A DNA stretch of 64,000 bases from Escherichia coli (GCA_025336725.1 GCA_025336725.1_3647.1), one strand, 5' to 3'; shown: positions 1,839 through 13,270, counted from the stretch's first letter. A program made the numbers and translations. Notes: generated from the letters alone by a model not told the origin.

Positions 1839-3920
1839 TTAAAAAGGTGTCTCATCGTCTTCAAAACCGGGAACAGGGTCAGAGGACGGATCATCATACG
1901 GAAGGTTTTCTTGTGTGTCAACAGGGTTAACAGCAGGGGTTATAACCTTATCAGCCACAACCTTGCCCACAGGTGTTTCTACAACTGCATGCTCCTGATC
2001 CTCAAACATAGCCTGAGGTCTCCAAACAACCTCCCCACCTTCCCCATCTGTAAACATCTGCATTTCTTTGTCCCAGTACCAGTTGCTGGCATCATGGAAC
2101 TTGCCTGTGTGGGGATCCATAACTAGAGTGTCTGCAATACCTAAGGTTTTTGCTGGGCGGTTTTTAAGACCTACCAGTCGGACACGTCCACGGGAACGAT
2201 CCACCATCTCCTCTGCCTCTACCCCGACAACCACCCAGCTAAGTTGCTCCAATCCGGCACTACCGCGAAGGTTCTCTTTTCGTACAGGGTACCAGAAAGG
2301 TAACGGATTTCCATCCTTATCCTTCGGAGGTACAATCTCTGTGCGCTTCAGGTGAGCAATCACCAAGATAAACACATTAAACTGCTTACAGAACGCGGCT
2401 AGTTGAGTCATAGCCATGTCAAGTTCTTTGCGCTCATCCTTAACATTAAGCCCTGAAATCACCATAGACAAGTGATCCAGCACAATGTAACGGCAGTGAT
2501 ACAGGCACACCATTTGTTTAAGCTTAGTGATCAGCTCATCTACAGGGATGGAGCCGAAATGCTTGAACACTTTGATTTTTCCGGCCTTGGCCCAAGATTG
2601 ATGAATCTCAGCGTGCTCCTGATCGGTCAGGAACTGACTGGGGTCTTCAACAAACTCTTTAACATCAAACCCCAGCTGGTTAGCGTACAGAGAGTTGATT
2701 GCTTCCTCAGGATCCTCTTCAAGGTGAATCAGGCACAGGCGATCATCCTCTTCATAATCATCAGCTTTAGGGCATGTTGGATCCATCAAGTATCTTGCAA
2801 TGCAATGTTCCAGCTTCTTGGCTACAGTTGTTTTACCACCGCCAGACGGGCCTGTCAGCATCATCAAGGTGCCTTTGTGGAGTCCTTTCAGCATCTTCTG
2901 CAGTTTAGGGAACTCTGCACTAATATCCACGCCATTGGAAGTCTTCTTACGAAGAGATTCAATGGAGAAGTCTTCTAAATCAGATACAGCATCAGGCACA
3001 TATTTGACTGGGTGACGGAACATGTTGACAATATCTTCCAGCTTTTTAGCCTTCAGCATGTCACGAATATCTTTTACACCATCAGGGTCGTTTACCTCAC
3101 CTGGGTATTCCACGTGGTAAACGTTGTCAGCCATCAAAAATGCTGCGATATTATGCGTAGCTTCAACACCTTTGATAACGTGTTTTTGCTTCTCTACCTC
3201 GTTAGCTGCATCGTTGTCCATTGCAAGGACTACTGTTCCGTAGCTACGGATAAATTTCTCATTGTTCGCAAAAGTGTCTACGGCGTTTGCACACCCGCAG
3301 TTAATTCCGACAAAAGGCAGGCATGGTTTTCCTGCCAGATCACCGCCGTTAATAACTGCATCAATCCCATCCTGGACTTCTTTAGCCCACTGCTTCACCT
3401 TCGCCGGGGCTTTAGCATTGGTGAGAATTCCTTTTACTTGTACCTGATATGCAGCCTGCCACGCTGCAATAACATCTCCTTCCCCCTCACAAACGTTAAT
3501 CTGCTTGCGGTTGTTGGAGGATGCACACAGCTTTTGACCAAACATCTGGGAGTTGGCCTTTACTATGCCGACAACCGAGAAATGGCCCCTTTGCTCTTTA
3601 GGGATTGTCCAGTCACGCTTTTTAAAGCCAGATAGATTACCGTAGCGGTCATAATACGGAAAGTAGGTGGCAGTAACAGTTACGCCATCCTCTTGGGATA
3701 GCGATGATCGTACACCAAAATATTGTGCAGCCATCAGTCCAATATTTTGTTGTGGAACAGGGACAATTTTAGTATTTTCTAAAACAGTCTCTACAGTTTC
3801 AACTTCTTTTTCATCACGATAGTCTCGTTTCACACTTCCCCCACTTTTATACTTAGTTGCTTTCGGGTTTGGCTCACCGAAACGGTTGTATGCAGATGCC
3901 ATGAATTTACTGCCCATCAA
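1839..3920 (-). CDS. bifunctional DNA primase/helicase (T7 gp4-like)
   Basis: 693 aa; TOPRIM-like segment (..VVLAMDNDAANE..) followed by RecA-type helicase core with Walker A LTGPSGGGKTT. Confidence 0.8.
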   Translation of the reverse strand: MMGSKFMASAYNRFGEPNPKATKYKSGGSVKRDYRDEKEVETVETVLENTKIVPVPQQNIGLMAAQYFGVRSSLSQEDGVTVTATYFPYYDRYGNLSGFKKRDWTIPKEQRGHFSVVGIVKANSQMFGQKLCASSNNRKQINVCEGEGDVIAAWQAAYQVQVKGILTNAKAPAKVKQWAKEVQDGIDAVINGGDLAGKPCLPFVGINCGCANAVDTFANNEKFIRSYGTVVLAMDNDAANEVEKQKHVIKGVEATHNIAAFLMADNVYHVEYPGEVNDPDGVKDIRDMLKAKKLEDIVNMFRHPVKYVPDAVSDLEDFSIESLRKKTSNGVDISAEFPKLQKMLKGLHKGTLMMLTGPSGGGKTTVAKKLEHCIARYLMDPTCPKADDYEEDDRLCLIHLEEDPEEAINSLYANQLGFDVKEFVEDPSQFLTDQEHAEIHQSWAKAGKIKVFKHFGSIPVDELITKLKQMVCLYHCRYIVLDHLSMVISGLNVKDERKELDMAMTQLAAFCKQFNVFILVIAHLKRTEIVPPKDKDGNPLPFWYPVRKENLRGSAGLEQLSWVVVGVEAEEMVDRSRGRVRLVGLKNRPAKTLGIADTLVMDPHTGKFHDASNWYWDKEMQMFTDGEGGEVVWRPQAMFEDQEHAVVETPVGKVVADKVITPAVNPVDTQENLPYDDPSSDPVPGFEDDETPF

Positions 3921-4671
3921 TTCTTCTCCTTACTGCAGGCTCGTTTGCTAAGAATACAGCTCTTGCCCAGCCACGTGGTGTAAGGCTTCGAATCATCTTC
4001 GTCCTTGCACTCTTTCCACCTAGCTTAGCGTGTTGCATGGAATACCCGCTAACCGCGTCAACTATTTGCGGGACAGGTTTTGTGACCAGGATTATAAATC
4101 CATTACCTATCCAGCCGCAAGTTATTTTTGGATAGGCATCACGTGGAGCTATAAATTCAGGAAACCAAGGGTTTACATCATCCTCCGGTAAATACCCGCC
4201 ATAGTCAGAAGGATGAAAACGGTAATCAGGTTTGCGCCACAGTGTGGACATAACACCAACAGGATTCTCTACATGCCACGGGCAATCGTAAATCTCTCCC
4301 AGCTCTTCCGCAACCCGAGCATCCTTTACAGCATTAATTTGGATCATGGGGTCCTTAGCCAGCTTTTTCTTAAAATGTGCAGCACCTGATACCGCTAAAT
4401 GCGTGCACGGAGGAAATGCAAGAATAAAGTCTGGAGCTGGGTACATGCAAAAAGTTTCCTGAGGGAACCATGGGTCAATCCAATAATCCACATAGTGAAT
4501 GTTGGGATGATCAGTTATCACCTCTGCATAACTGCCGTGATCAGCACCTTCTGCATTAAAGCACAGGCACAGGTACCCAGCTTTTGCCCAGTCAATGACT
4601 GCACCACCAGACCCGTCAAATAGACTCCACACAACACCTTTGTGGTAGTGTTCTTTGTAGATAAATTTCAA
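3907..4671 (-). CDS. SAM-dependent methyltransferase-like protein with DNA cytosine-5 MTase-like motifs
   Basis: FDGSGG (motif I-like), FPPCTHLAVSG (PC motif IV-like), HVENPVG (ENV motif VI-like); start moved to TTG at 4671 (AGGAGA RBS 7 nt upstream) because ORF-track GTG start 4701 lies inside a hairpin. Confidence 0.35.
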   Translation of the reverse strand: MKFIYKEHYHKGVVWSLFDGSGGAVIDWAKAGYLCLCFNAEGADHGSYAEVITDHPNIHYVDYWIDPWFPQETFCMYPAPDFILAFPPCTHLAVSGAAHFKKKLAKDPMIQINAVKDARVAEELGEIYDCPWHVENPVGVMSTLWRKPDYRFHPSDYGGYLPEDDVNPWFPEFIAPRDAYPKITCGWIGNGFIILVTKPVPQIVDAVSGYSMQHAKLGGKSARTKMIRSLTPRGWARAVFLANEPAVRRRIDGQ

Positions 4672-5974: not shown

Positions 5975-6316
5975 CTACTCAAGGTCTTCAGAGTCAAGCT
6001 CAAAAAGAATCAAACTGTGCATGCCTGCAGAGAGATCAACACACCCTGCAACAATAAGGGTTTGATAGTAAGGTTCAGCACCCTCAATATCTTCGTTAAA
6101 ATCCACAACAAGGTAGTCACCTTTGTTAAAGGTGTATTTGTCCGATGTAAACGCAAAACCTGCCCAGTCCCCTACTGCAGGATCTTTATCAGTCACCTTT
6201 GTTAGTAGTAGATCTTTTTCACGAGATCTTTTAGTAAAATCGTGAATCACAACATCCTTCTCTTCAGGAGTCGGATTGCCACACACGTAGTTAACGATAT
6301 TTCTCCACAAACTCAT
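5975..6316 (-). CDS. hypothetical protein
   Basis: 113 aa ORF, 4-nt overlap with downstream helicase gene. Confidence 0.5.
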   Translation of the reverse strand: MSLWRNIVNYVCGNPTPEEKDVVIHDFTKRSREKDLLLTKVTDKDPAVGDWAGFAFTSDKYTFNKGDYLVVDFNEDIEGAEPYYQTLIVAGCVDLSAGMHSLILFELDSEDLE

Positions 6317-7683
6317 ACGTCCCCCTTTTCTGCTCTAGTTTCAAAATCTTTCCTGACTTTCTCGTCTAAGCCAGGGAAAGTTGTATTATAAAACTCTACG
6401 ACTCTCGGGTCAACAATAATATCCACCTCTCTTAATGGACGCAATAAGTTTATTCCTTGTATCGTCTTAACCCGACTCAAGGCAACATACGTCATTCCGG
6501 GAGAGAAAGCTCCGTTCTTTCCGAGGTCTAGGTTGTAACAATCTAACGTAAGTCCTTGACTTTTATGCGATGTTACTGCGTACCCAGATTTCAAAGGAAG
6601 TTGCTCATAAGACCCGATCACAACCCTCTCTATGAACTTCTCCATCTTCCTTTCGGCAATATTGTACCTCTGGGAAGGTTTGTACTCGTTATTCTCCCAC
6701 AATCTCGGCTCAATTTCAACCTGTGTTCCGTCTTCTAGCTCAACTACTACGGATTTGGTCTTGAATTTTACCACTGTGGCACGTGTCCCGTTAACATAAT
6801 ACGGAACTTTGTGAGTAGGGTCAACATCGTTTGAGGTTATCATAACCTTCATCCCTATCTTCAGCCTCATTTCCTGCTCCACAGGTAGTGTGGAAGGGAA
6901 CTTACCTTTCATTTTACCAATGTAGGTCTTCTCTGGGGCCTTGATGGCATCATAGAAACGTCTGTTCACCTCCTCTGCTTGCTTATTGGTGGCACAGATG
7001 GTCAAGGCATCTGTTGGGACACCACCATGATAGCAACGAGTGTTAAGCTCTGCTACAACCTCTTTTATGCGACGACCTTCACGAACACAGTTCAACATTG
7101 TGGCGAAGCGAACAGATTCCTGACGGAACTGGTCTACCAAGGCTATGTTGTGAAGATTAAGATCCTCCCAAGATTCTGTATAGCAACACAGATCTGTGTG
7201 GTAGAAGTTGAAGTAGGCTTCTTTCTCCATAGAAGAGACAACTGGAGGTGCTTGGTAGAAATCTCCAAACAATAACACCTGAATGCCTCCGAAAGGTTTG
7301 TCATTTTTCCGAAGAAAGCGGAGTTTTCTATCCATCTCTATGAACTTGTCAGCACGGATCATAGAGATTTCATCGATAATCAGGATGGTAAATGCCTTGC
7401 TTTTCAGAGGCTTTGCTGTTTTTGCCCTTATTGCTGTCCAGTCTGACTCCATGCTCACACCTGCGGCAAGATCGAAAGTTCGGTGCGCTGTTGCTCCATT
7501 AACGTTTAAAGCGGCTACCCCTGTCGGGGCAACCGTTATGCAAGAGTCTCCATACATGGACTGGATCATGTTGATAAGATATGTCTTCCCGGTTCCACCA
7601 GGTCCACTTACGAAGACATTCTCACCGCTCATGATTGCAACAAGGGCAGCATCTGTGCCTACATCGTACTGCCCTTTTTCCAT
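6313..7683 (-). CDS. SF1B DNA helicase (PIF1/RecD/Dda-like)
   Basis: 456 aa; Walker A VSGPGGTGKTYL, Walker B IIDEISM, motif LLFGDFYQAPPV typical of PIF1/Dda-like helicases. Confidence 0.8.
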   Translation of the reverse strand: MEKGQYDVGTDAALVAIMSGENVFVSGPGGTGKTYLINMIQSMYGDSCITVAPTGVAALNVNGATAHRTFDLAAGVSMESDWTAIRAKTAKPLKSKAFTILIIDEISMIRADKFIEMDRKLRFLRKNDKPFGGIQVLLFGDFYQAPPVVSSMEKEAYFNFYHTDLCCYTESWEDLNLHNIALVDQFRQESVRFATMLNCVREGRRIKEVVAELNTRCYHGGVPTDALTICATNKQAEEVNRRFYDAIKAPEKTYIGKMKGKFPSTLPVEQEMRLKIGMKVMITSNDVDPTHKVPYYVNGTRATVVKFKTKSVVVELEDGTQVEIEPRLWENNEYKPSQRYNIAERKMEKFIERVVIGSYEQLPLKSGYAVTSHKSQGLTLDCYNLDLGKNGAFSPGMTYVALSRVKTIQGINLLRPLREVDIIVDPRVVEFYNTTFPGLDEKVRKDFETRAEKGDV

Positions 7684-8924
7684 TACGCCTCCTCGTAGAT
7701 AATGTCGATAGTATTACCGTCGCGGTCAACCACGTACTCAATTGGGTCGCCATCTTTGCGCGATTCTGGAGCTACTACGATTTCGTAGCGGCATGCACGG
7801 CACTTGGCGCTGTTGTGTTGGTAAGGTACACTAACTACATCGGCAGGGTCAACCATAACCGTCATCACAGTTCCGTAGCTCTTTGCATACTCTTTGCTGG
7901 CACAGTGCAGGCCATAAGAGCATGCAGCTTCCGGATCATCCTCTACAAAGTTACGAGGCATGGATACAAAAGCCCCCTGGTATTGTGGGACTTTACCACT
8001 GTGCCAATCCACCCACTTGTCGCCGTTAAACTGAACCCCTTTGTAGCAAATGATTCGACCATCTTCTGCAATCTGAATGTCGTTTGCCTGCATAAAATCG
8101 TAGAGCATGTTTACAGATTTTGCAGAAGGATTGCGTAGCAGGCGAACGAGGAATTTCACATAGCGGTCATCCAGTGTTCCGTCTGCATAATCTTTCTCAA
8201 TTTTCTTTGCAATGGTGGATCGCATCTCTACACCGTAGTAGTAGAGCTTACCATCTTTCATGATCAGGTTGTCTGCAAGTGTGGTGAACTCATTCTTTCG
8301 TTCCAGCCAGACAAGGATTTCACCAATTGCCTCGTCATATTCCTGAACAGAGATATGGTCGAAGACTTTCTGGTAAACTTCCTCACTTTCACTGCGGCGA
8401 ATTTCAAAAATACCTTCGTTGCAGGTGATCTGGAGGAGTTCCCCGCAAATAACCACCAAAGGCTCGATGCTTCGGGTCTGTTGCTGAGACACACTGCTCA
8501 CCACCTCCAGCACCGGGTCTTTTACTTCTACTAAAGGTTCTTCTGACTTGATTGCTACCCCAGTGAACCCTACACCGTGAACAACACACAGTGGATATAC
8601 CACACCCCAACGTTTAACGGAACCTTCTCCTAAATCTAAGATCATGGCGTACTTACCGTTATCTTCCAGCCCATATCGAAATAAACGGGCCTCTTCACGG
8701 GTTTCAAAATACTCACGGGTGTAGCAGACGCTGTCACGGTCAGGATCGAACAACTCTGGGGCACCTACTGCCAGTGTCCAGGTTGTGTTACCTTTCTCAA
8801 TAGCGCATGTGAAACCCTTCTTCTCAAGCTCTGCACGGCGGTCACGTGCTTCTTTACGAGTTTTGAAATGTTCGTAGATGAAAATCATCTTGGTCTCCTT
8901 ATTTGATGTTATTCTTTGTATCAA
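7683..8924 (-). CDS. rIIB: rIIB-like protein
   Basis: 413 aa directly downstream of rIIA-like gene; C-terminal region (..LYDFMQANDIQIAEDG.., ..VDPADVVSVPYQHN..) matches my recollection of T4 rIIB. Confidence 0.75.
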   Translation of the reverse strand: MIQRITSNKETKMIFIYEHFKTRKEARDRRAELEKKGFTCAIEKGNTTWTLAVGAPELFDPDRDSVCYTREYFETREEARLFRYGLEDNGKYAMILDLGEGSVKRWGVVYPLCVVHGVGFTGVAIKSEEPLVEVKDPVLEVVSSVSQQQTRSIEPLVVICGELLQITCNEGIFEIRRSESEEVYQKVFDHISVQEYDEAIGEILVWLERKNEFTTLADNLIMKDGKLYYYGVEMRSTIAKKIEKDYADGTLDDRYVKFLVRLLRNPSAKSVNMLYDFMQANDIQIAEDGRIICYKGVQFNGDKWVDWHSGKVPQYQGAFVSMPRNFVEDDPEAACSYGLHCASKEYAKSYGTVMTVMVDPADVVSVPYQHNSAKCRACRYEIVVAPESRKDGDPIEYVVDRDGNTIDIIYEEA

Positions 8925-10881
8925 TCAGTTCACGGTATTCAATCATAGCAGGAGTGTCCCAATATTTCAAGCCTACATGCTTCAAAAGTGGATATTTCTT
9001 TTCCAATCTTGCAATATAGGCCTTCCCGCACTTAACCCCGTTGGCGATTAAGATTTTGGCACGATGATTTAGCTCACCGTATCTCCACGTGGTGCTACCT
9101 TCCCACTTGTGGAAATGTGGCCGATAACTTCCAAAATCCTGCATGGGGATAATTTTACCTAACTGTCTGTACAGGCTGTCATATGAAGTTTCATTTGCTG
9201 CGCGAGTTAGTAAGAATTTCCAAGCATCCTCTTTCAACAAATGTTCCACATCCTTCTCTGTAACATATTGGCAATCAGGATCAGTCCAAAGCAGACGAGA
9301 TTCCGACACCAGGTACAGATCTTCCCCTTCAGGAATCTGGAGTGCCGCACGCACACGGTCATAATCTTGCTGGTAGATGTTGCTCATCTGCCCTAGCCAA
9401 CAACTTCCGCGTTGGATATCCCCCTCATACGGTATGCAGTGCTTAATCTTCCTGAACTCTGCCTTAGTAATACGCTCACGCCGGAAGTAACCATCCTTCT
9501 CAAGTTTTTTAACCCAATAGCCTGGTTCGTAACGGGTTTTGGTTTCACCTTTCTTCGTAGGTCGGCGTGGAAGCTCCGATAACAATTTGACCGTATCTGC
9601 AAAAAACGGATGGTGTGCCGCCTCTTTAAACTCTTTCACCAGATCCGTGTTACGGCAATAGAAAACGTTGCGTCCGGTAATCTCGCTTAAGTAGTTACAC
9701 TTATTCCGGTTATATTTGCCGTCTCCGTCGTTAAATACTAAATAAACTCCCCGTAAGAATTCTACCTTTCCGTAGCAGGCGTAACCTATGCGGCCTTTAT
9801 TTAAGCCGCCAGCGAAGATCTCGCAGTCCCCCAAATTTCCTAGCCCTGTTTCTTCCCAGCGGTCATACATAAAATTCTTACCGAAGATGTGCCCGAACAC
9901 TCCACTGTTCTTCATCATCTCGCGTGCTTCTGAGGATGTTTTTGCTGTCTCCAGTTCTGCAACAACTTCTGCTCCACGAAGGCGAATGCCTTCTTTGACA
10001 AAAGCTTCCAAACGCTCTTGGAATCCACCATCGTCGTGACCTTCTATGGTCCATTCACGCCCTGGGTTAATATTGCAATCTCCGATAGGGATCTCTACAC
10101 AAATTGCAGGATAATCTATTAGTGTCTCCAGGAACTTAGAACGGTAAGGTTGGTGACCCATTACCACACGACTCTCGTCAGAGCTGGTATAACCCTTCAG
10201 GATGGTCATCTTCCAACCATCTTTTTCATAATAATACTGCGCCTCTACTTTGTCTCCCTCCAGCATCTTGCTCGTCATCGGGTCGGTGACAGTGAACGGA
10301 AATTTTGCATAGCGCAGGCATGATGCAATAGCGGTGCGATATTTCAGAACATGCTCTTTCTTAACATGAAACTGAACTTTTACCCCGTTGTGCTCTTCAG
10401 TCTTCCGCTCACGGATCTTGGTGACATTTGGGATACCCTGGTCCAAGAACAATAGGTATGTGCTTTCCACACCGTTGTGCACACTGATTACATCGAAAGT
10501 GTCCACCATGCTGAACGGGGCCTTTGAACCAACACCCTTATTACCAACCAGAGCGTTGCTATTGCGCTTGGTTGACTCACCGAGGTTCATGAAAGTGTTG
10601 CGGACCATTTCTTCTGACATACCGAGGCCAACGTCCTGCACAAAGAAGTATGGTTCAAGATCTGTAGGAGAGTGAATGATGATCGGCATATCACCTCGTC
10701 CAGACTCAACATGGGAGTCCACAGCGTTGAAGATTGGTTCACGGCAGTTTGCCAGCACCTTATCTTCATAAATCCCTTTAATGATTAACCCAAAAGTCTC
10801 TTTGTTCAGAGAAATTGATCCCCTTGTGACCTCCAAATTCCCAGTTAGCACTGCTTTAGTTTCATTACTGTTTACAATCAT
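8899..10881 (-). CDS. rIIA: rIIA-like protein (GHKL/Bergerat ATPase fold)
   Basis: 660 aa; N-terminal GHKL motifs ..VQDVGLGMSEEM.. and ..GNKGVGSKAPFSMVDTFDVISVHNG.. closely resemble T4 rIIA (..RDFGPGMSDFD.., ..[25 protein letters not shown]..). Confidence 0.8.
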   Translation of the reverse strand: MIVNSNETKAVLTGNLEVTRGSISLNKETFGLIIKGIYEDKVLANCREPIFNAVDSHVESGRGDMPIIIHSPTDLEPYFFVQDVGLGMSEEMVRNTFMNLGESTKRNSNALVGNKGVGSKAPFSMVDTFDVISVHNGVESTYLLFLDQGIPNVTKIRERKTEEHNGVKVQFHVKKEHVLKYRTAIASCLRYAKFPFTVTDPMTSKMLEGDKVEAQYYYEKDGWKMTILKGYTSSDESRVVMGHQPYRSKFLETLIDYPAICVEIPIGDCNINPGREWTIEGHDDGGFQERLEAFVKEGIRLRGAEVVAELETAKTSSEAREMMKNSGVFGHIFGKNFMYDRWEETGLGNLGDCEIFAGGLNKGRIGYACYGKVEFLRGVYLVFNDGDGKYNRNKCNYLSEITGRNVFYCRNTDLVKEFKEAAHHPFFADTVKLLSELPRRPTKKGETKTRYEPGYWVKKLEKDGYFRRERITKAEFRKIKHCIPYEGDIQRGSCWLGQMSNIYQQDYDRVRAALQIPEGEDLYLVSESRLLWTDPDCQYVTEKDVEHLLKEDAWKFLLTRAANETSYDSLYRQLGKIIPMQDFGSYRPHFHKWEGSTTWRYGELNHRAKILIANGVKCGKAYIARLEKKYPLLKHVGLKYWDTPAMIEYRELIDTKNNIK

Positions 10882-11378
10882 TTATTGCGCTCCTTGTAGT
10901 AGATATGGTTCCCGAATTGAGCTGTCCTCTGCATCTTTTTTGCCCATTTCGGTCGTATTTTGGTTGTATGGTAGTGTGTTGCTCCACCTGTTATATCCAT
11001 AGCCATGTATGCAACATGGTTGTTATTATAGACCTTTAGAAGCATCTTTGCAAGACTTTTAGCGTGATCCCATGAATCTTTTTCTGTCACCTTAAAAGTT
11101 TTGCCGTGGTTTGTCCACGAAAACTGGTTAGGTTGGTAGACAATCTTTCTTATCGTGTCTGGGTATTTAGGGTGGGATTTCCTGTTTAGTGTGGCAAACC
11201 CAGATGCCAGCATACCCATCGTGCCATCCCCTCTAGCCTCCCTGTAGATATTGCATGCCAGAATGTTTTCCTTAGTATCCGATGGCTTGCAAGTATGATA
11301 TACTTTTTGTTTTGGTGCTGCAACAACAGGCAGCGATAAAAGTGCGCTCAAAATAATAGCAAAGATCTTAATTTTCAC
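10878..11378 (-). CDS. secreted cell-wall hydrolase, SleB family (endolysin candidate)
   Basis: 166 aa; N-terminal signal peptide MKIKIFAIILSALLSLPVVAAP; SleB-like motif NIYREARGDG...ATLNRK...YQPNQFSW. Confidence 0.6.
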   Translation of the reverse strand: MKIKIFAIILSALLSLPVVAAPKQKVYHTCKPSDTKENILACNIYREARGDGTMGMLASGFATLNRKSHPKYPDTIRKIVYQPNQFSWTNHGKTFKVTEKDSWDHAKSLAKMLLKVYNNNHVAYMAMDITGGATHYHTTKIRPKWAKKMQRTAQFGNHIYYKERNK

Positions 11379-11391
11379 AATAACTCCAAAT

Positions 11392-11417
11392 AGAAAATCC
11401 CCGCCGAAGCGGGGGTG
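11392..11417 (-). terminator. rho-independent terminator
   Basis: Minus strand CCCCCGC-TTCG-GCGGGG hairpin followed by TTTTCTATT, just downstream of stop of ORF 11427..11807. Confidence 0.6.
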
Positions 11418-11426
11418 TCTTAGAAA

Positions 11427-11807
11427 TTAATCGTAGTGTGCCAAAATCTCTCCATCGTTGCAAGTTCCTTCTACAAAGTTATGAAGATTCATGCACTCAT
11501 CTTGATAGAAGAATTTACCGCTTTTCAGCCGTAAGCCAAACAACTCCGCATCTCCACGATGGCAAGCCTCTACAAGTTCATAGATTTCATACGGCAACTC
11601 TCCGTCGTCATGGAAGAACCCAGCTTTATCGTTGACATAGATGAAGAAATAATCACTGCTGTCGCAAGCGTCCAATATTTCAAACCAGATTTCATCTACA
11701 TCTTTTTCTCGGATATCGATCACGCAAGTGGAGCTGCATTCGTACTCCTTCTCCGGCTCCTCGGTCAATACTACCAGGTAGTTTCCCCGCTTACCTACTT
11801 TAGCCAT
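11427..11807 (-). CDS. hypothetical acidic protein
   Basis: 126 aa, strongly D/E-rich. Confidence 0.5.
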   Translation of the reverse strand: MAKVGKRGNYLVVLTEEPEKEYECSSTCVIDIREKDVDEIWFEILDACDSSDYFFIYVNDKAGFFHDDGELPYEIYELVEACHRGDAELFGLRLKSGKFFYQDECMNLHNFVEGTCNDGEILAHYD

Positions 11808-11816
11808 ACAACCTCC

Positions 11817-13001
11817 TCAAGCTTTAGCCAAAATGGCGCTAAACTCTTCACCAAACTCTTTTACAATCTTCATCAGGTTTGGGTACGCTTTGATCAGTTG
11901 AGCAACGATCTTGTCACGACCTTTACCGATAAGCAAGGCATTTCCTAAGGCATTAGGTTTCATCATCGCCATAAAGACTGAGAATACAAAGTCTCGGTTC
12001 TCATCCTTGAAATTTTCCCAAAGGAAATCAAGGAAGTTTGCCACACAGCTGACGAGATCTTCGTCGGAGATACTTGCATTTTCCATCATGTTACGAATAG
12101 CGATACAACCTTCAGACCCCAGAATCCACAAGATGTCTGGCTGCTTAGGGCCTACATATTCTTTGCAGCCTCCTGCCATAATCCGACCGATTTCTGGCAA
12201 GTTTCGTTTCTTGGTGTGGTAGGTCCAAATTTCTACCGCTGCAGTGTGACCAATGGCACCTTGTAGAAGAACACGGGCCATAGCGTCAGAAATAATACCG
12301 CTGTCAAAATCGTGCAGGATGTCAGATGCAGCAACCCAAGAGCGCGGTGTAGCAAAAGATGGACAATTAATCTCAGCCATGGCCTCATAATTATCGATGG
12401 CTGATGGGACTCTTTTCAGATATCCAATTACCGAGGAGTGCACCCCATTAAGGAATGCATAGTCCTCAATAAACACCTCTGCACTGCTTGTAACTTCTAC
12501 AATGATAAAGCGGTTAGCTAGAGGAGCTTCGAGTGCCGAAAGAACAGCACCGTCTGTAGCACGGTTACCTGCAGCTACAAAAACAGAGCCTTTAGGAAAT
12601 GCATAGGTGCCGCACTTGTGGTCGAGCATAATTTGCATTGCAACCTTCTGCAGGTAGTTATCTGCATGAGTAAGCTCGTCTAGAAAGATAATTCCGCTCC
12701 AGTCCGGATCTGCAGGCCAAAATTCTGGAATTGCAAACACTGTACGTGTAGTTCCATCTGCCTCCACAGGGATAGGCAGTCCAGATAAGTCAGCAGGATC
12801 TTTATCTGACAACCGCACGTCAACCAGGTTGTCATCTCGCTCACCGAACATATTATCAGCAATCTGCTTCATCACCTGGCTCTTCCCCACGCCCATCGGT
12901 CCTAAAATCAGGACAGATCGGTTATGACGCTGGGCAAATTGAATAATAGCTGGCAACTCGCGGACAGTGATTTGACCACTTTCGAATACGTTTCTCGACA
13001 T
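11817..13001 (-). CDS. MoxR-like AAA+ ATPase (AAA_5 type)
   Basis: 394 aa; Walker A GPMGVGKS, Walker B IIFLDEL, sensor-like VAAGN. Confidence 0.7.
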   Translation of the reverse strand: MSRNVFESGQITVRELPAIIQFAQRHNRSVLILGPMGVGKSQVMKQIADNMFGERDDNLVDVRLSDKDPADLSGLPIPVEADGTTRTVFAIPEFWPADPDWSGIIFLDELTHADNYLQKVAMQIMLDHKCGTYAFPKGSVFVAAGNRATDGAVLSALEAPLANRFIIVEVTSSAEVFIEDYAFLNGVHSSVIGYLKRVPSAIDNYEAMAEINCPSFATPRSWVAASDILHDFDSGIISDAMARVLLQGAIGHTAAVEIWTYHTKKRNLPEIGRIMAGGCKEYVGPKQPDILWILGSEGCIAIRNMMENASISDEDLVSCVANFLDFLWENFKDENRDFVFSVFMAMMKPNALGNALLIGKGRDKIVAQLIKAYPNLMKIVKEFGEEFSAILAKA

Positions 13002-13270
13002 TAGTAAAAGTCCTCTACTTGTGTGTAAGTGTTTTCAAAGTTTTCCAAAACAGACATCACATCGGATCTGTCAATATCATACGCAACTCTCCAGACATAT
13101 GCAACCCTTTCTGCTGTTGCCTCTTCTGGCGCTAGTCGTCTGCTGGCATAAAAGAGTGTTGGAGTACACTTTCTTGCTTGCCCTCTAACTTTCCCATAAT
13201 AATATCTGTGAATATCTTTGTCAAAATTTAATTCTTTTTCTGCACGAAGTTCGTACTGCTGGTATAACAT
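13001..13270 (-). CDS. hypothetical protein
   Basis: 89 aa ORF abutting ATPase gene. Confidence 0.45.
   Translation of the reverse strand: MLYQQYELRAEKELNFDKDIHRYYYGKVRGQARKCTPTLFYASRRLAPEEATAERVAYVWRVAYDIDRSDVMSVLENFENTYTQVEDFY

Follow-up and report, generated by a model that had tools for sequence, protein, structure and literature searches.

An rIIA–rIIB gene pair in the replication-gene operon of an rV5-like Escherichia coli myovirus

Results

An rIIA–rIIB pair fills the region

We examined a stretch of Escherichia coli DNA (GCA_025336725.1) of 64,000 nucleotides, hereafter called the window, in which an open reading frame (ORF) search found positions 7683 to 10881 of the minus strand to be filled by two long, co-oriented ORFs. 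The upstream ORF (8899 to 10881) encodes RIIA, a protein of 660 amino acids with an N-terminal ATPase domain of the GHKL/Hsp90 type followed by a lineage-specific remainder. The downstream ORF (7683 to 8888) encodes RIIB, a protein of 401 amino acids consisting of an N-terminal repeat, a linker, and a conserved C-terminal domain. All of the features described below lie on the same strand, where the gene order is MoxR ATPase, hypothetical protein, SleB-like hydrolase, rIIA, rIIB, and PIF1-type helicase, with methyltransferases and a primase/helicase located farther along.

A first-pass annotation of this DNA had assigned the two proteins to T4 rIIA and rIIB by motif, and database searches bear this assignment out with significant similarity for both. 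RIIA matches PHROG 612 (“RIIA”) from end to end with an E-value of 5.1e-122, and BLASTP aligns its residues 1 to 198 with T4 rIIA (AF158101) at 28% identity (E 7e-21). Likewise, RIIB matches PHROG 609 (“RIIB”) over residues 144 to 385 (E 1.6e-61) and T4 rIIB over residues 172 to 371 at 37% identity (E 5e-39). Because these values are far beyond what is expected by chance, the similarity of both proteins to their T4 and PHROG counterparts is real. Homologues of RIIB spanning 35 to 99% identity carry the Pfam domain PF26926 (Phage_T4_rIIB), and residues 50 to 147 of RIIA match the GHKL family HATPase_c_3 (PF13589) with 33.4 bits against a cut-off of 25. NCBIfam offered no family-level match for either protein, and a plain sequence search against Protein Data Bank (PDB) chains likewise returned none.

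The N-box, G1, and G2 motifs that mark membership in the GHKL group are intact in RIIA. Moreover, in an alignment of 30 RIIA homologues that share 20 to 96% identity, the corresponding residues E48/N52/D55, D83/G85/G87, and G113/G116/G118/K120 are invariant, as are Y246 and R275/E276. The proteins of this family have been described as an N-terminal GHKL ATPase joined to a variable C-terminus, forming a poorly understood counter-defence system (PMC7824862).

The position of rIIB directly 3′ of rIIA on the same strand is shared with T4 and with loci from IMG/VR, and the spacer between the two genes is 10 to 11 nucleotides in both T4 and the window. The GHKL motifs in the N-terminal part of RIIA and the C-terminal domain of RIIB are likewise common to the two phages. 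In contrast, BLASTP yields no RIIA match past residue ∼198, and no part of RIIB before residue 172 can be aligned. The N-terminus of RIIB in the window is a tandem SPOR-like repeat, whereas that of T4 looks helix-turn-helix-like. The N-terminal region of RIIB varies and is not a defining part of the family. The gene neighborhoods also differ: in T4, the pair is preceded by rIIA.1 and topoisomerase genes and followed by denB.1/denB, and it has neither a hydrolase nor a PIF1 helicase beside it.

The start codon of rIIB deserves comment. The longest ORF begins at a TTG codon at position 8924, which is an unlikely start because an AAGGAG sequence precedes the ATG at 8888 and annotated relatives begin rIIB at the equivalent ATG, giving a gene of 1206 nucleotides. 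The stop codon of rIIA (TAA, 8901 to 8899) sits within this AAGGAG Shine–Dalgarno sequence, and the ATG at 8888 follows seven bases on.

The locus derives from a Vequintavirus

A search of GenBank with the 6.8-kb segment from 6300 to 13100 identified Escherichia phage S127 BCL3 as a match with 98.8% identity. This search returned 123 phage records at 80 to 99% identity, nearly all of which are rV5-like E. coli myoviruses (Vequintavirinae, genus Vequintavirus). The rIIA–rIIB segment alone is found in 120 records at 90 to 99% nucleotide identity, the majority of which annotate rIIA, rIIB, a SleB or cell wall hydrolase, and a helicase. Judged by this nucleotide similarity, the source genome is a Vequintavirus. 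Several of the records, including the rV5 reference NC_011041, open at rIIA. Furthermore, rV5 and other members of the genus (S127 BCL3, ECP26, Bas54/MaxBurger, EdH4, and Murica) have the same genes in the same order with the same overlaps as the window, and the same gene lengths (hydrolase, 501 nucleotides; rIIA, 1983; rIIB, 1206; helicase, 1371). They differ from it by point differences only, with nothing structural among them. The locus is therefore already known and is annotated routinely in rV5-like phages.

Two observations from these searches concern the database records themselves. Sixteen records (MG0656xx) that are ∼92% identical to the locus are titled “Campylobacter phage” with C. 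jejuni given as the host, and these host labels look doubtful. In the record for Escherichia phage BP9 (PP488543.1), the first query base to match is 346, and the record annotates an “IS2 insertion element repressor InsA” beneath the match, which suggests that an insertion sequence lies near the 3′ end of rIIB or at its junction with the helicase gene in that phage.

The pair belongs to a long leftward operon among the replication genes of the genome, and this operon extends as far as a primase/helicase and a DNA polymerase. The first-pass annotation had described the phage as having T7-like replication genes. This holds for the individual enzymes, since the operon encodes a primase/helicase of the T7 gp4 type and a polymerase of the family-A type, but not for the phage, which is an rV5-like myovirus. 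The genes surrounding the pair are closely packed. The TGA stop codon of the hydrolase gene (11378 to 10878) overlaps the ATG of rIIA in the sequence ATGA at 10881 to 10878, the 10-nucleotide spacer between rIIA and rIIB contains the Shine–Dalgarno sequence noted above, and the TAA of rIIB overlaps the ATG of the helicase gene as TAATG. That these three junctions overlap or nearly abut suggests translational coupling between hydrolase and rIIA, rIIA and rIIB, and rIIB and helicase. A scan for sigma-70 promoters gave a result at background level (23 found, 19.7 expected), and for this reason we make no claim for a promoter. Across positions 1 to 64000, no tRNA gene and no Rfam family at the gathering threshold was detected.

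Experiments with related phages link the pair to RexAB

Among the functions known for the T4 homologues is protection from the lambda RexAB system, and insertions in T4 rIIA and rIIB are depleted under RexAB. When RIIA or RIIB was knocked down by CRISPRi-ART in phages T4, MM02, EdH4, SUSP1, and N4, plating was lowered only on hosts carrying RexAB (PMC11879866). EdH4 is a member of Vequintavirus murica, and the rIIA gene of phage Murica shares ∼90% nucleotide identity with that of the window. The first-pass annotation had proposed that loss of the pair be assayed on hosts with Rex-like exclusion systems. This experiment has effectively been published for the same genus, and its outcome supports a role in the evasion of exclusion (PMC11879866).

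The requirement for these genes on an ordinary host has been mapped on E. coli K-12 by a HIDEN-SEQ transposon screen of phage Bas54, whose layout and gene lengths match those of the window exactly. Insertions were recovered at 32 of 36 TA sites in the hydrolase gene, 90 of 101 in rIIA, and 56 of 59 in rIIB, and the orthologues of hydrolase, rIIA, rIIB, and helicase were all classed as non-essential (10.1101/2025.11.20.689424). An additional connection to host defence comes from phage T6, whose RIIB protein by itself triggers a CARD/gasdermin defence; escapers that have lost rIIB become sensitive to RexAB. The RII proteins of T4 are described as membrane-associated. In the window, neither RIIA nor RIIB has a predicted membrane-spanning segment.

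A possible resemblance of RIIA to the Hsp90 family beyond its nucleotide-binding motifs

A profile built from the alignment of 30 RIIA homologues was compared with the PDB, and the Hsp90 family ranked first (HtpG, E 5.9e-8; TRAP1; GRP94). The alignment with HtpG enters the middle domain and extends to HtpG residue 426. In this alignment, an invariant RIIA motif at residues ∼258 to 292 (IGD-x-x-[IV]-x-x-[SG]-R-E, containing R275/E276) is matched to the Hsp90 catalytic loop DLPLNVSRE, such that SRE pairs with SRE. This SRE motif is invariant from rV5-like phages to very distant homologues. Indeed, RIIA shares with HtpG, TRAP1, and GRP94 the Bergerat-fold motifs RE..NA.DA, D.G.GM, the S.TK lid, and G..G.G.

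Structure prediction leads in the same direction. The AlphaFold 2 (AF2) model of RIIA has a predicted local distance difference test score of 83, and the best 50 Foldseek matches by E-value are all chains of the Hsp90 family, most of them full-length, the best with an E-value of 1e-16 and a TM-score of ∼0.34. In the PDB, the best matches of RIIA by both sequence and fold are HtpG, TRAP1, and GRP94, and not MutL, GyrB, or MORC. There are also clear differences from Hsp90 proteins. Identity is only 13 to 16%, the TM-score is low, the Pfam HSP90 family (PF00183) is not matched by any of the 30 homologues, no equivalence of the C-terminal third of RIIA to the Hsp90 dimerization domain is evident, and RIIA has a dedicated partner, RIIB, that is without a relative in the PDB. 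A literature search for a link between rIIA and Hsp90 found none.

RIIB has a two-part architecture and no structural relative in the PDB

The N-terminus of RIIB is formed by a tandem β-α-β-β repeat (residues 1 to 42 and 55 to 101, ∼45 amino acids each) that carries the signature R.EAR...W. The repeat is kept in relatives at 35 to 50% identity and is unlike the N-terminus of T4 rIIB. It is followed by a disordered linker at residues ∼100 to 141. A SPOR signal in the N-terminal region scored 19 bits, which is below the 21-bit cut-off, and the likeness to SPOR domains appears to be a resemblance at the level of fold only. SPOR-type binding of peptidoglycan would take place in the periplasm; because RIIB has no export signal, such a role is unlikely.

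The C-terminal domain of RIIB was modeled confidently by AF2. Nevertheless, a profile search against the PDB with RIIB gave only noise (E ≥ 0.1), and Foldseek found nothing below an E-value of 0.1, the matches listed being generic β-α-β-β mini-proteins and, across 46 columns, a single SPOR domain. The fold of RIIB therefore provides no clue to its function.

A putatively exported SleB-like hydrolase is encoded 5′ of rIIA

The gene adjoining rIIA (10878 to 11378) encodes a peptidoglycan hydrolase of the SleB/CwlJ type with 166 amino acids and a signal-peptide-like N-terminus. The first-pass annotation had placed the rII pair directly upstream of this gene. The adjacency is correct, whereas the order is the reverse, since the three genes share the minus strand and the hydrolase gene lies 5′ of rIIA. 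The protein matches the SleB/CwlJ catalytic domain (Pfam Hydrolase_2, PF07486) with 71.5 bits against a cut-off of 27, and it aligns with the catalytic domain of Bacillus cereus SleB (PDB 4F55, E 3e-6) with retention of the catalytic-glutamate motif Y-x-E-[AS]-R-G. Both the domain and this motif are shared with the SleB/CwlJ structures 4F55 and 4FET. Unlike those enzymes, the hydrolase of the window lacks an N-terminal peptidoglycan-binding domain and instead begins with a peptide resembling a Sec-type signal. The spore-SleB equivalog (TIGR02869) was considered as an identity for this protein. It is ruled out, given the absence of the N-terminal domain and a score of 49.3 bits, far below the cut-off of 236.5, from an alignment confined to the C-terminal catalytic part.

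The putative signal reads MKIK, then IFAIILSALLSL, then PVVA/A, with hydrophobic residues from 3 to 21 (Kyte–Doolittle 2.34), which would correspond to a positive n-region, a hydrophobic h-region, and a small-residue cleavage site. Across the four proteins examined, no other segment is strongly hydrophobic. A signal-like N-terminus of different sequence is also present in the distant hydrolase homologues of KP12-like phages. Enzymes of this kind, SleB-like with a signal peptide, occur in the replication module of all Vequintavirinae genera and are toxic when expressed, and the related phages encode a lysozyme-type endolysin in the structural module and spanins beside the terminase gene (PMC7344957, PMC12210895). 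For the homologue in phage CB7, both a signal peptide and toxicity on expression have been reported, and the homologue in phage CR3 has been implicated in lysis. We searched the ORFs of the window for the other parts of a classical lysis cassette and found neither a small holin-like membrane ORF nor a spanin near the hydrolase gene. By its domain content and surroundings, the protein is probably an accessory muralytic enzyme of the phage rather than a germination enzyme, and it is unlikely to be a member of a lysis cassette.

Conservation of the gene neighborhood

We used the proteins of the window to search contigs carrying rIIB homologues along with 80 IMG/VR loci carrying rIIA relatives. 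In essentially every IMG/VR locus with enough downstream DNA, rIIB follows rIIA. The hydrolase gene lies 5′ of rIIA at 13 of the 18 assessable loci that encode a full-length RIIA of the Vequintavirinae type (33 to 98% identity), and within the 80 IMG/VR loci it neighbors rIIA in the Vequintavirinae-like lineage only. A collinear sister group whose RIIA is 53% identical preserves the order MoxR–hypothetical–rIIA–rIIB–helicase without the hydrolase, which is absent as well from one further locus. At the ∼58 assessable distant rIIA–rIIB loci, no SleB-like neighbor was found. Conversely, Certreviruses possess the hydrolase and lack rIIA and rIIB. The confinement of the hydrolase to one lineage indicates that its adjacency to rIIA is lineage-specific synteny, which is compatible with co-expression and provides no evidence for a lysis module.

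The KP12-like Klebsiella phage relatives have an uncalled ORF of 51 amino acids with two hydrophobic segments between hydrolase and rIIA (in L006 at 3847 to 4002, and also in L007 and L008). This small ORF resembles a holin candidate located after the SleB-like gene of Certrevirus CB7. A search of the window for a homologue of the KP12-type peptide with its two transmembrane segments found none.

Other genes and a hairpin in the operon

Downstream of rIIB is a gene for a superfamily 1B helicase of the PIF1/Dda-like type (6313 to 7683; 456 amino acids; PF05970, E 1.8e-33; PHROG 325). This gene is a conserved neighbor in the Vequintavirinae-like lineage, where it comes next after rIIB at nearly every locus that has sufficient DNA on that side, and it is found beside none of 60 distant rII loci. 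Its length varies among KP12-like contigs, from 760 amino acids in L006 (7236 to 9518) to ∼435 in others such as L007 (7236 to 8543). The tblastn match to the L006 helicase is split, which suggests that it holds an inserted element, for example an intein or a homing endonuclease. HNH/AP2 genes are also scattered in these loci.

Upstream of the hydrolase gene are a conserved hypothetical gene (11427 to 11807; 126 amino acids; PHROG 12370, E 1.6e-88), whose counterpart in the hydrolase-less sister group is 57% identical, and a gene for a MoxR-type AAA+ ATPase of the same operon (11817 to 13001; PHROG 1297, E 2e-110). The latter is the counterpart of bas54_0063 by position, by annotation, and by its identical length of 1185 nucleotides. 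In Bas54, bas54_0063 is a validated anti-defence gene required against the defence system DS-28, and the helicase orthologue bas54_0068 was strongly depleted (log2 fold change −6.3) in a comparison using clinical isolates (10.1101/2025.11.20.689424). These two orthologues raise the possibility that genes for host range or anti-defence are overrepresented in the operon.

At 11399 to 11414 there is a GC hairpin resembling a terminator, with the sequence CCCCGCTTCGGCGGGG and then a T-run; it has six GC pairs and a loop of four nucleotides. Reading from 11414 to 11399, it is inside the operon, 20 nucleotides 5′ of the hydrolase start codon, and has a GCTTCGGC-type loop. It was recognized as a consensus match only, and it may mark a transcript boundary or an attenuation point. 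A GC hairpin (CCCCTC...GAGGGG) also precedes rIIA in L005, a locus without the hydrolase.

Discussion

The homology of both proteins, together with the experiments performed in the same genus, makes it highly probable that the region is the rIIA–rIIB accessory pair of a Vequintavirus, dispensable on ordinary hosts and needed on hosts with RexAB-type systems. As such, the finding adds nothing new in regard to the pair itself, since the Rex role has been tested in this genus and dispensability has been mapped by transposon sequencing. A working model can be outlined as follows. Abortive infection of the RexAB type would depolarize the membrane and thereby abort infection unless the RII pair is present. 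RIIA would serve as a GHKL clamp of the Hsp90 type powered by ATP, for which both the nucleotide-binding motifs and an Hsp90-like catalytic-loop arginine appear to be intact, and would do so with RIIB as its obligate partner. This presumably takes place in the cytoplasm, because neither protein has a predicted membrane-spanning segment. Together, RIIA and RIIB would keep the Rex-type sensor or channel from being activated or undo its activation.

Several points weigh against this account. The RexAB test was made with EdH4 and not with the phage of the window, and we infer the likeness of EdH4 from its species. In the same comparison of Bas54 using clinical isolates that showed depletion of the helicase, rIIA and rIIB had log2 fold changes of −0.01 and −0.34, respectively, which is no conditional phenotype (10.1101/2025.11.20.689424); consequently, the natural target of the pair in E. 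coli populations is not established. The route by which RII counters Rex is described as poorly understood even in T4, and so the Hsp90-like clamp step is one that we infer. Beyond the N-terminal domain, the Hsp90 assignment consists of a Foldseek match with a low TM-score (∼0.34) and one profile alignment, with PF00183 not matched, and the PDB yielded no structural relative of RIIB. On the strength of the sequence and the predicted model, the Hsp90-type clamp is a reasonable, unproven mechanistic model for RIIA. A more far-reaching version, in which RIIA is a true Hsp90-family machine and not a generic GHKL ATPase, with R275 as the catalytic-loop residue of its middle domain, RIIB is a dedicated adaptor or client that in Vequintavirinae has exchanged the T4 N-terminus for a tandem SPOR-like module, and the early operon, by co-translation of the pair with a Sec-exported SleB-like hydrolase, couples envelope remodeling with protection of membrane energetics, strikes us as speculative and rather unlikely to hold in full.

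The first-pass annotation had considered a module for either lysis timing or evasion of exclusion, and the available data separate these two proposals. The knock-down results with EdH4 argue for evasion of exclusion (PMC11879866), whereas synteny, the absence of a nearby holin or spanin gene, and the Bas54 insertion data speak against lysis timing. If hydrolase, rIIA, and rIIB did form one lysis-timing module, the RII proteins would hold back or time the muralytic enzyme, and such an arrangement would be in keeping with the overlap between the hydrolase stop codon and the rIIA start codon. It would also fit the adjacency seen at 13 of the 18 Vequintavirinae-like loci that could be assessed, where RIIA identity falls as low as 33%, the possible holin represented by the 51-amino-acid ORF of KP12-like phages and by the similar small ORF after the Certrevirus SleB-like gene, and the toxicity and lysis reported for the CB7 and CR3 homologues. 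However, the sister group dispenses with the hydrolase while keeping the MoxR, hypothetical, rIIA, rIIB, and helicase genes in order, a SleB-like neighbor appears at 0 of ∼58 distant loci, and Certreviruses have the enzyme yet no rII genes. Moreover, the site in the window has no holin-like ORF, the spanins and the lysozyme-type endolysin of related phages are encoded elsewhere, and all three genes are non-essential in Bas54. The designation of RII as a “lysis inhibitor” is historical, and the phenotype that has been tested is evasion of Rex. We consider a lysis-timing module quite improbable. The hydrolase is better viewed, from its sequence and distribution, as a separate accessory gene whose product is probably an exported, non-essential muralytic enzyme that shares a transcript with the rII pair in this lineage only.

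Improbable as well, in our estimation, is a scheme wherein RII mainly serves DNA metabolism, with an Hsp90/GHKL-type ATPase and its partner acting at the replication or recombination machinery and Rex evasion being secondary. T4 rII mutations suppress ligase-deficient mutants, and T4 rIIA adjoins the topoisomerase genes 60 and 39. In the Vequintavirinae-like lineage, rIIB is coupled to the PIF1/Dda-like helicase gene through TAATG and nearly always neighbors it, the pair is placed in the replication module, and some records annotate a “putative DNA-binding rIIA protein.” By our own reading, the N-terminus of T4 rIIB might also be of the helix-turn-helix kind. Nonetheless, rIIA and rIIB are non-essential and without fitness cost in T4 and in Bas54 on K-12, and the helicase is a neighbor at 0 of 60 distant rII loci. 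Sensitivity to RexAB is the sole reproducible conditional phenotype, observed across five genera. The triggering of a gasdermin defence by RIIB and the RexAB sensitivity that results from its loss both point to the interface with host defence. Finally, we found no point in support of the notion that the two ORFs arose by chance or are decayed pseudogenes without function, and its probability is negligible. The genes are full-length and free of frameshifts in ∼120 genomes (90 to 99% nucleotide identity) and in relatives with as little as 33% amino acid identity, the catalytic motifs are invariant, and knock-down in EdH4 has a phenotype. These conservation data refute it.

The assignment of the region to an accessory rII pair that counters RexAB-type systems is of practical value primarily for annotation, in which rII genes would be labeled as Rex-type counter-defence or as a “membrane integrity protector” rather than as a “lysis inhibitor.” The forward-looking part is the combination of an Hsp90-type signature in RIIA with an orphan fold in RIIB, which could guide the biochemistry of the RII mechanism. 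If the Hsp90 relationship is true, the decades-old question of the biochemical role of the rII proteins could be put to the test as one about a chaperone or clamp.

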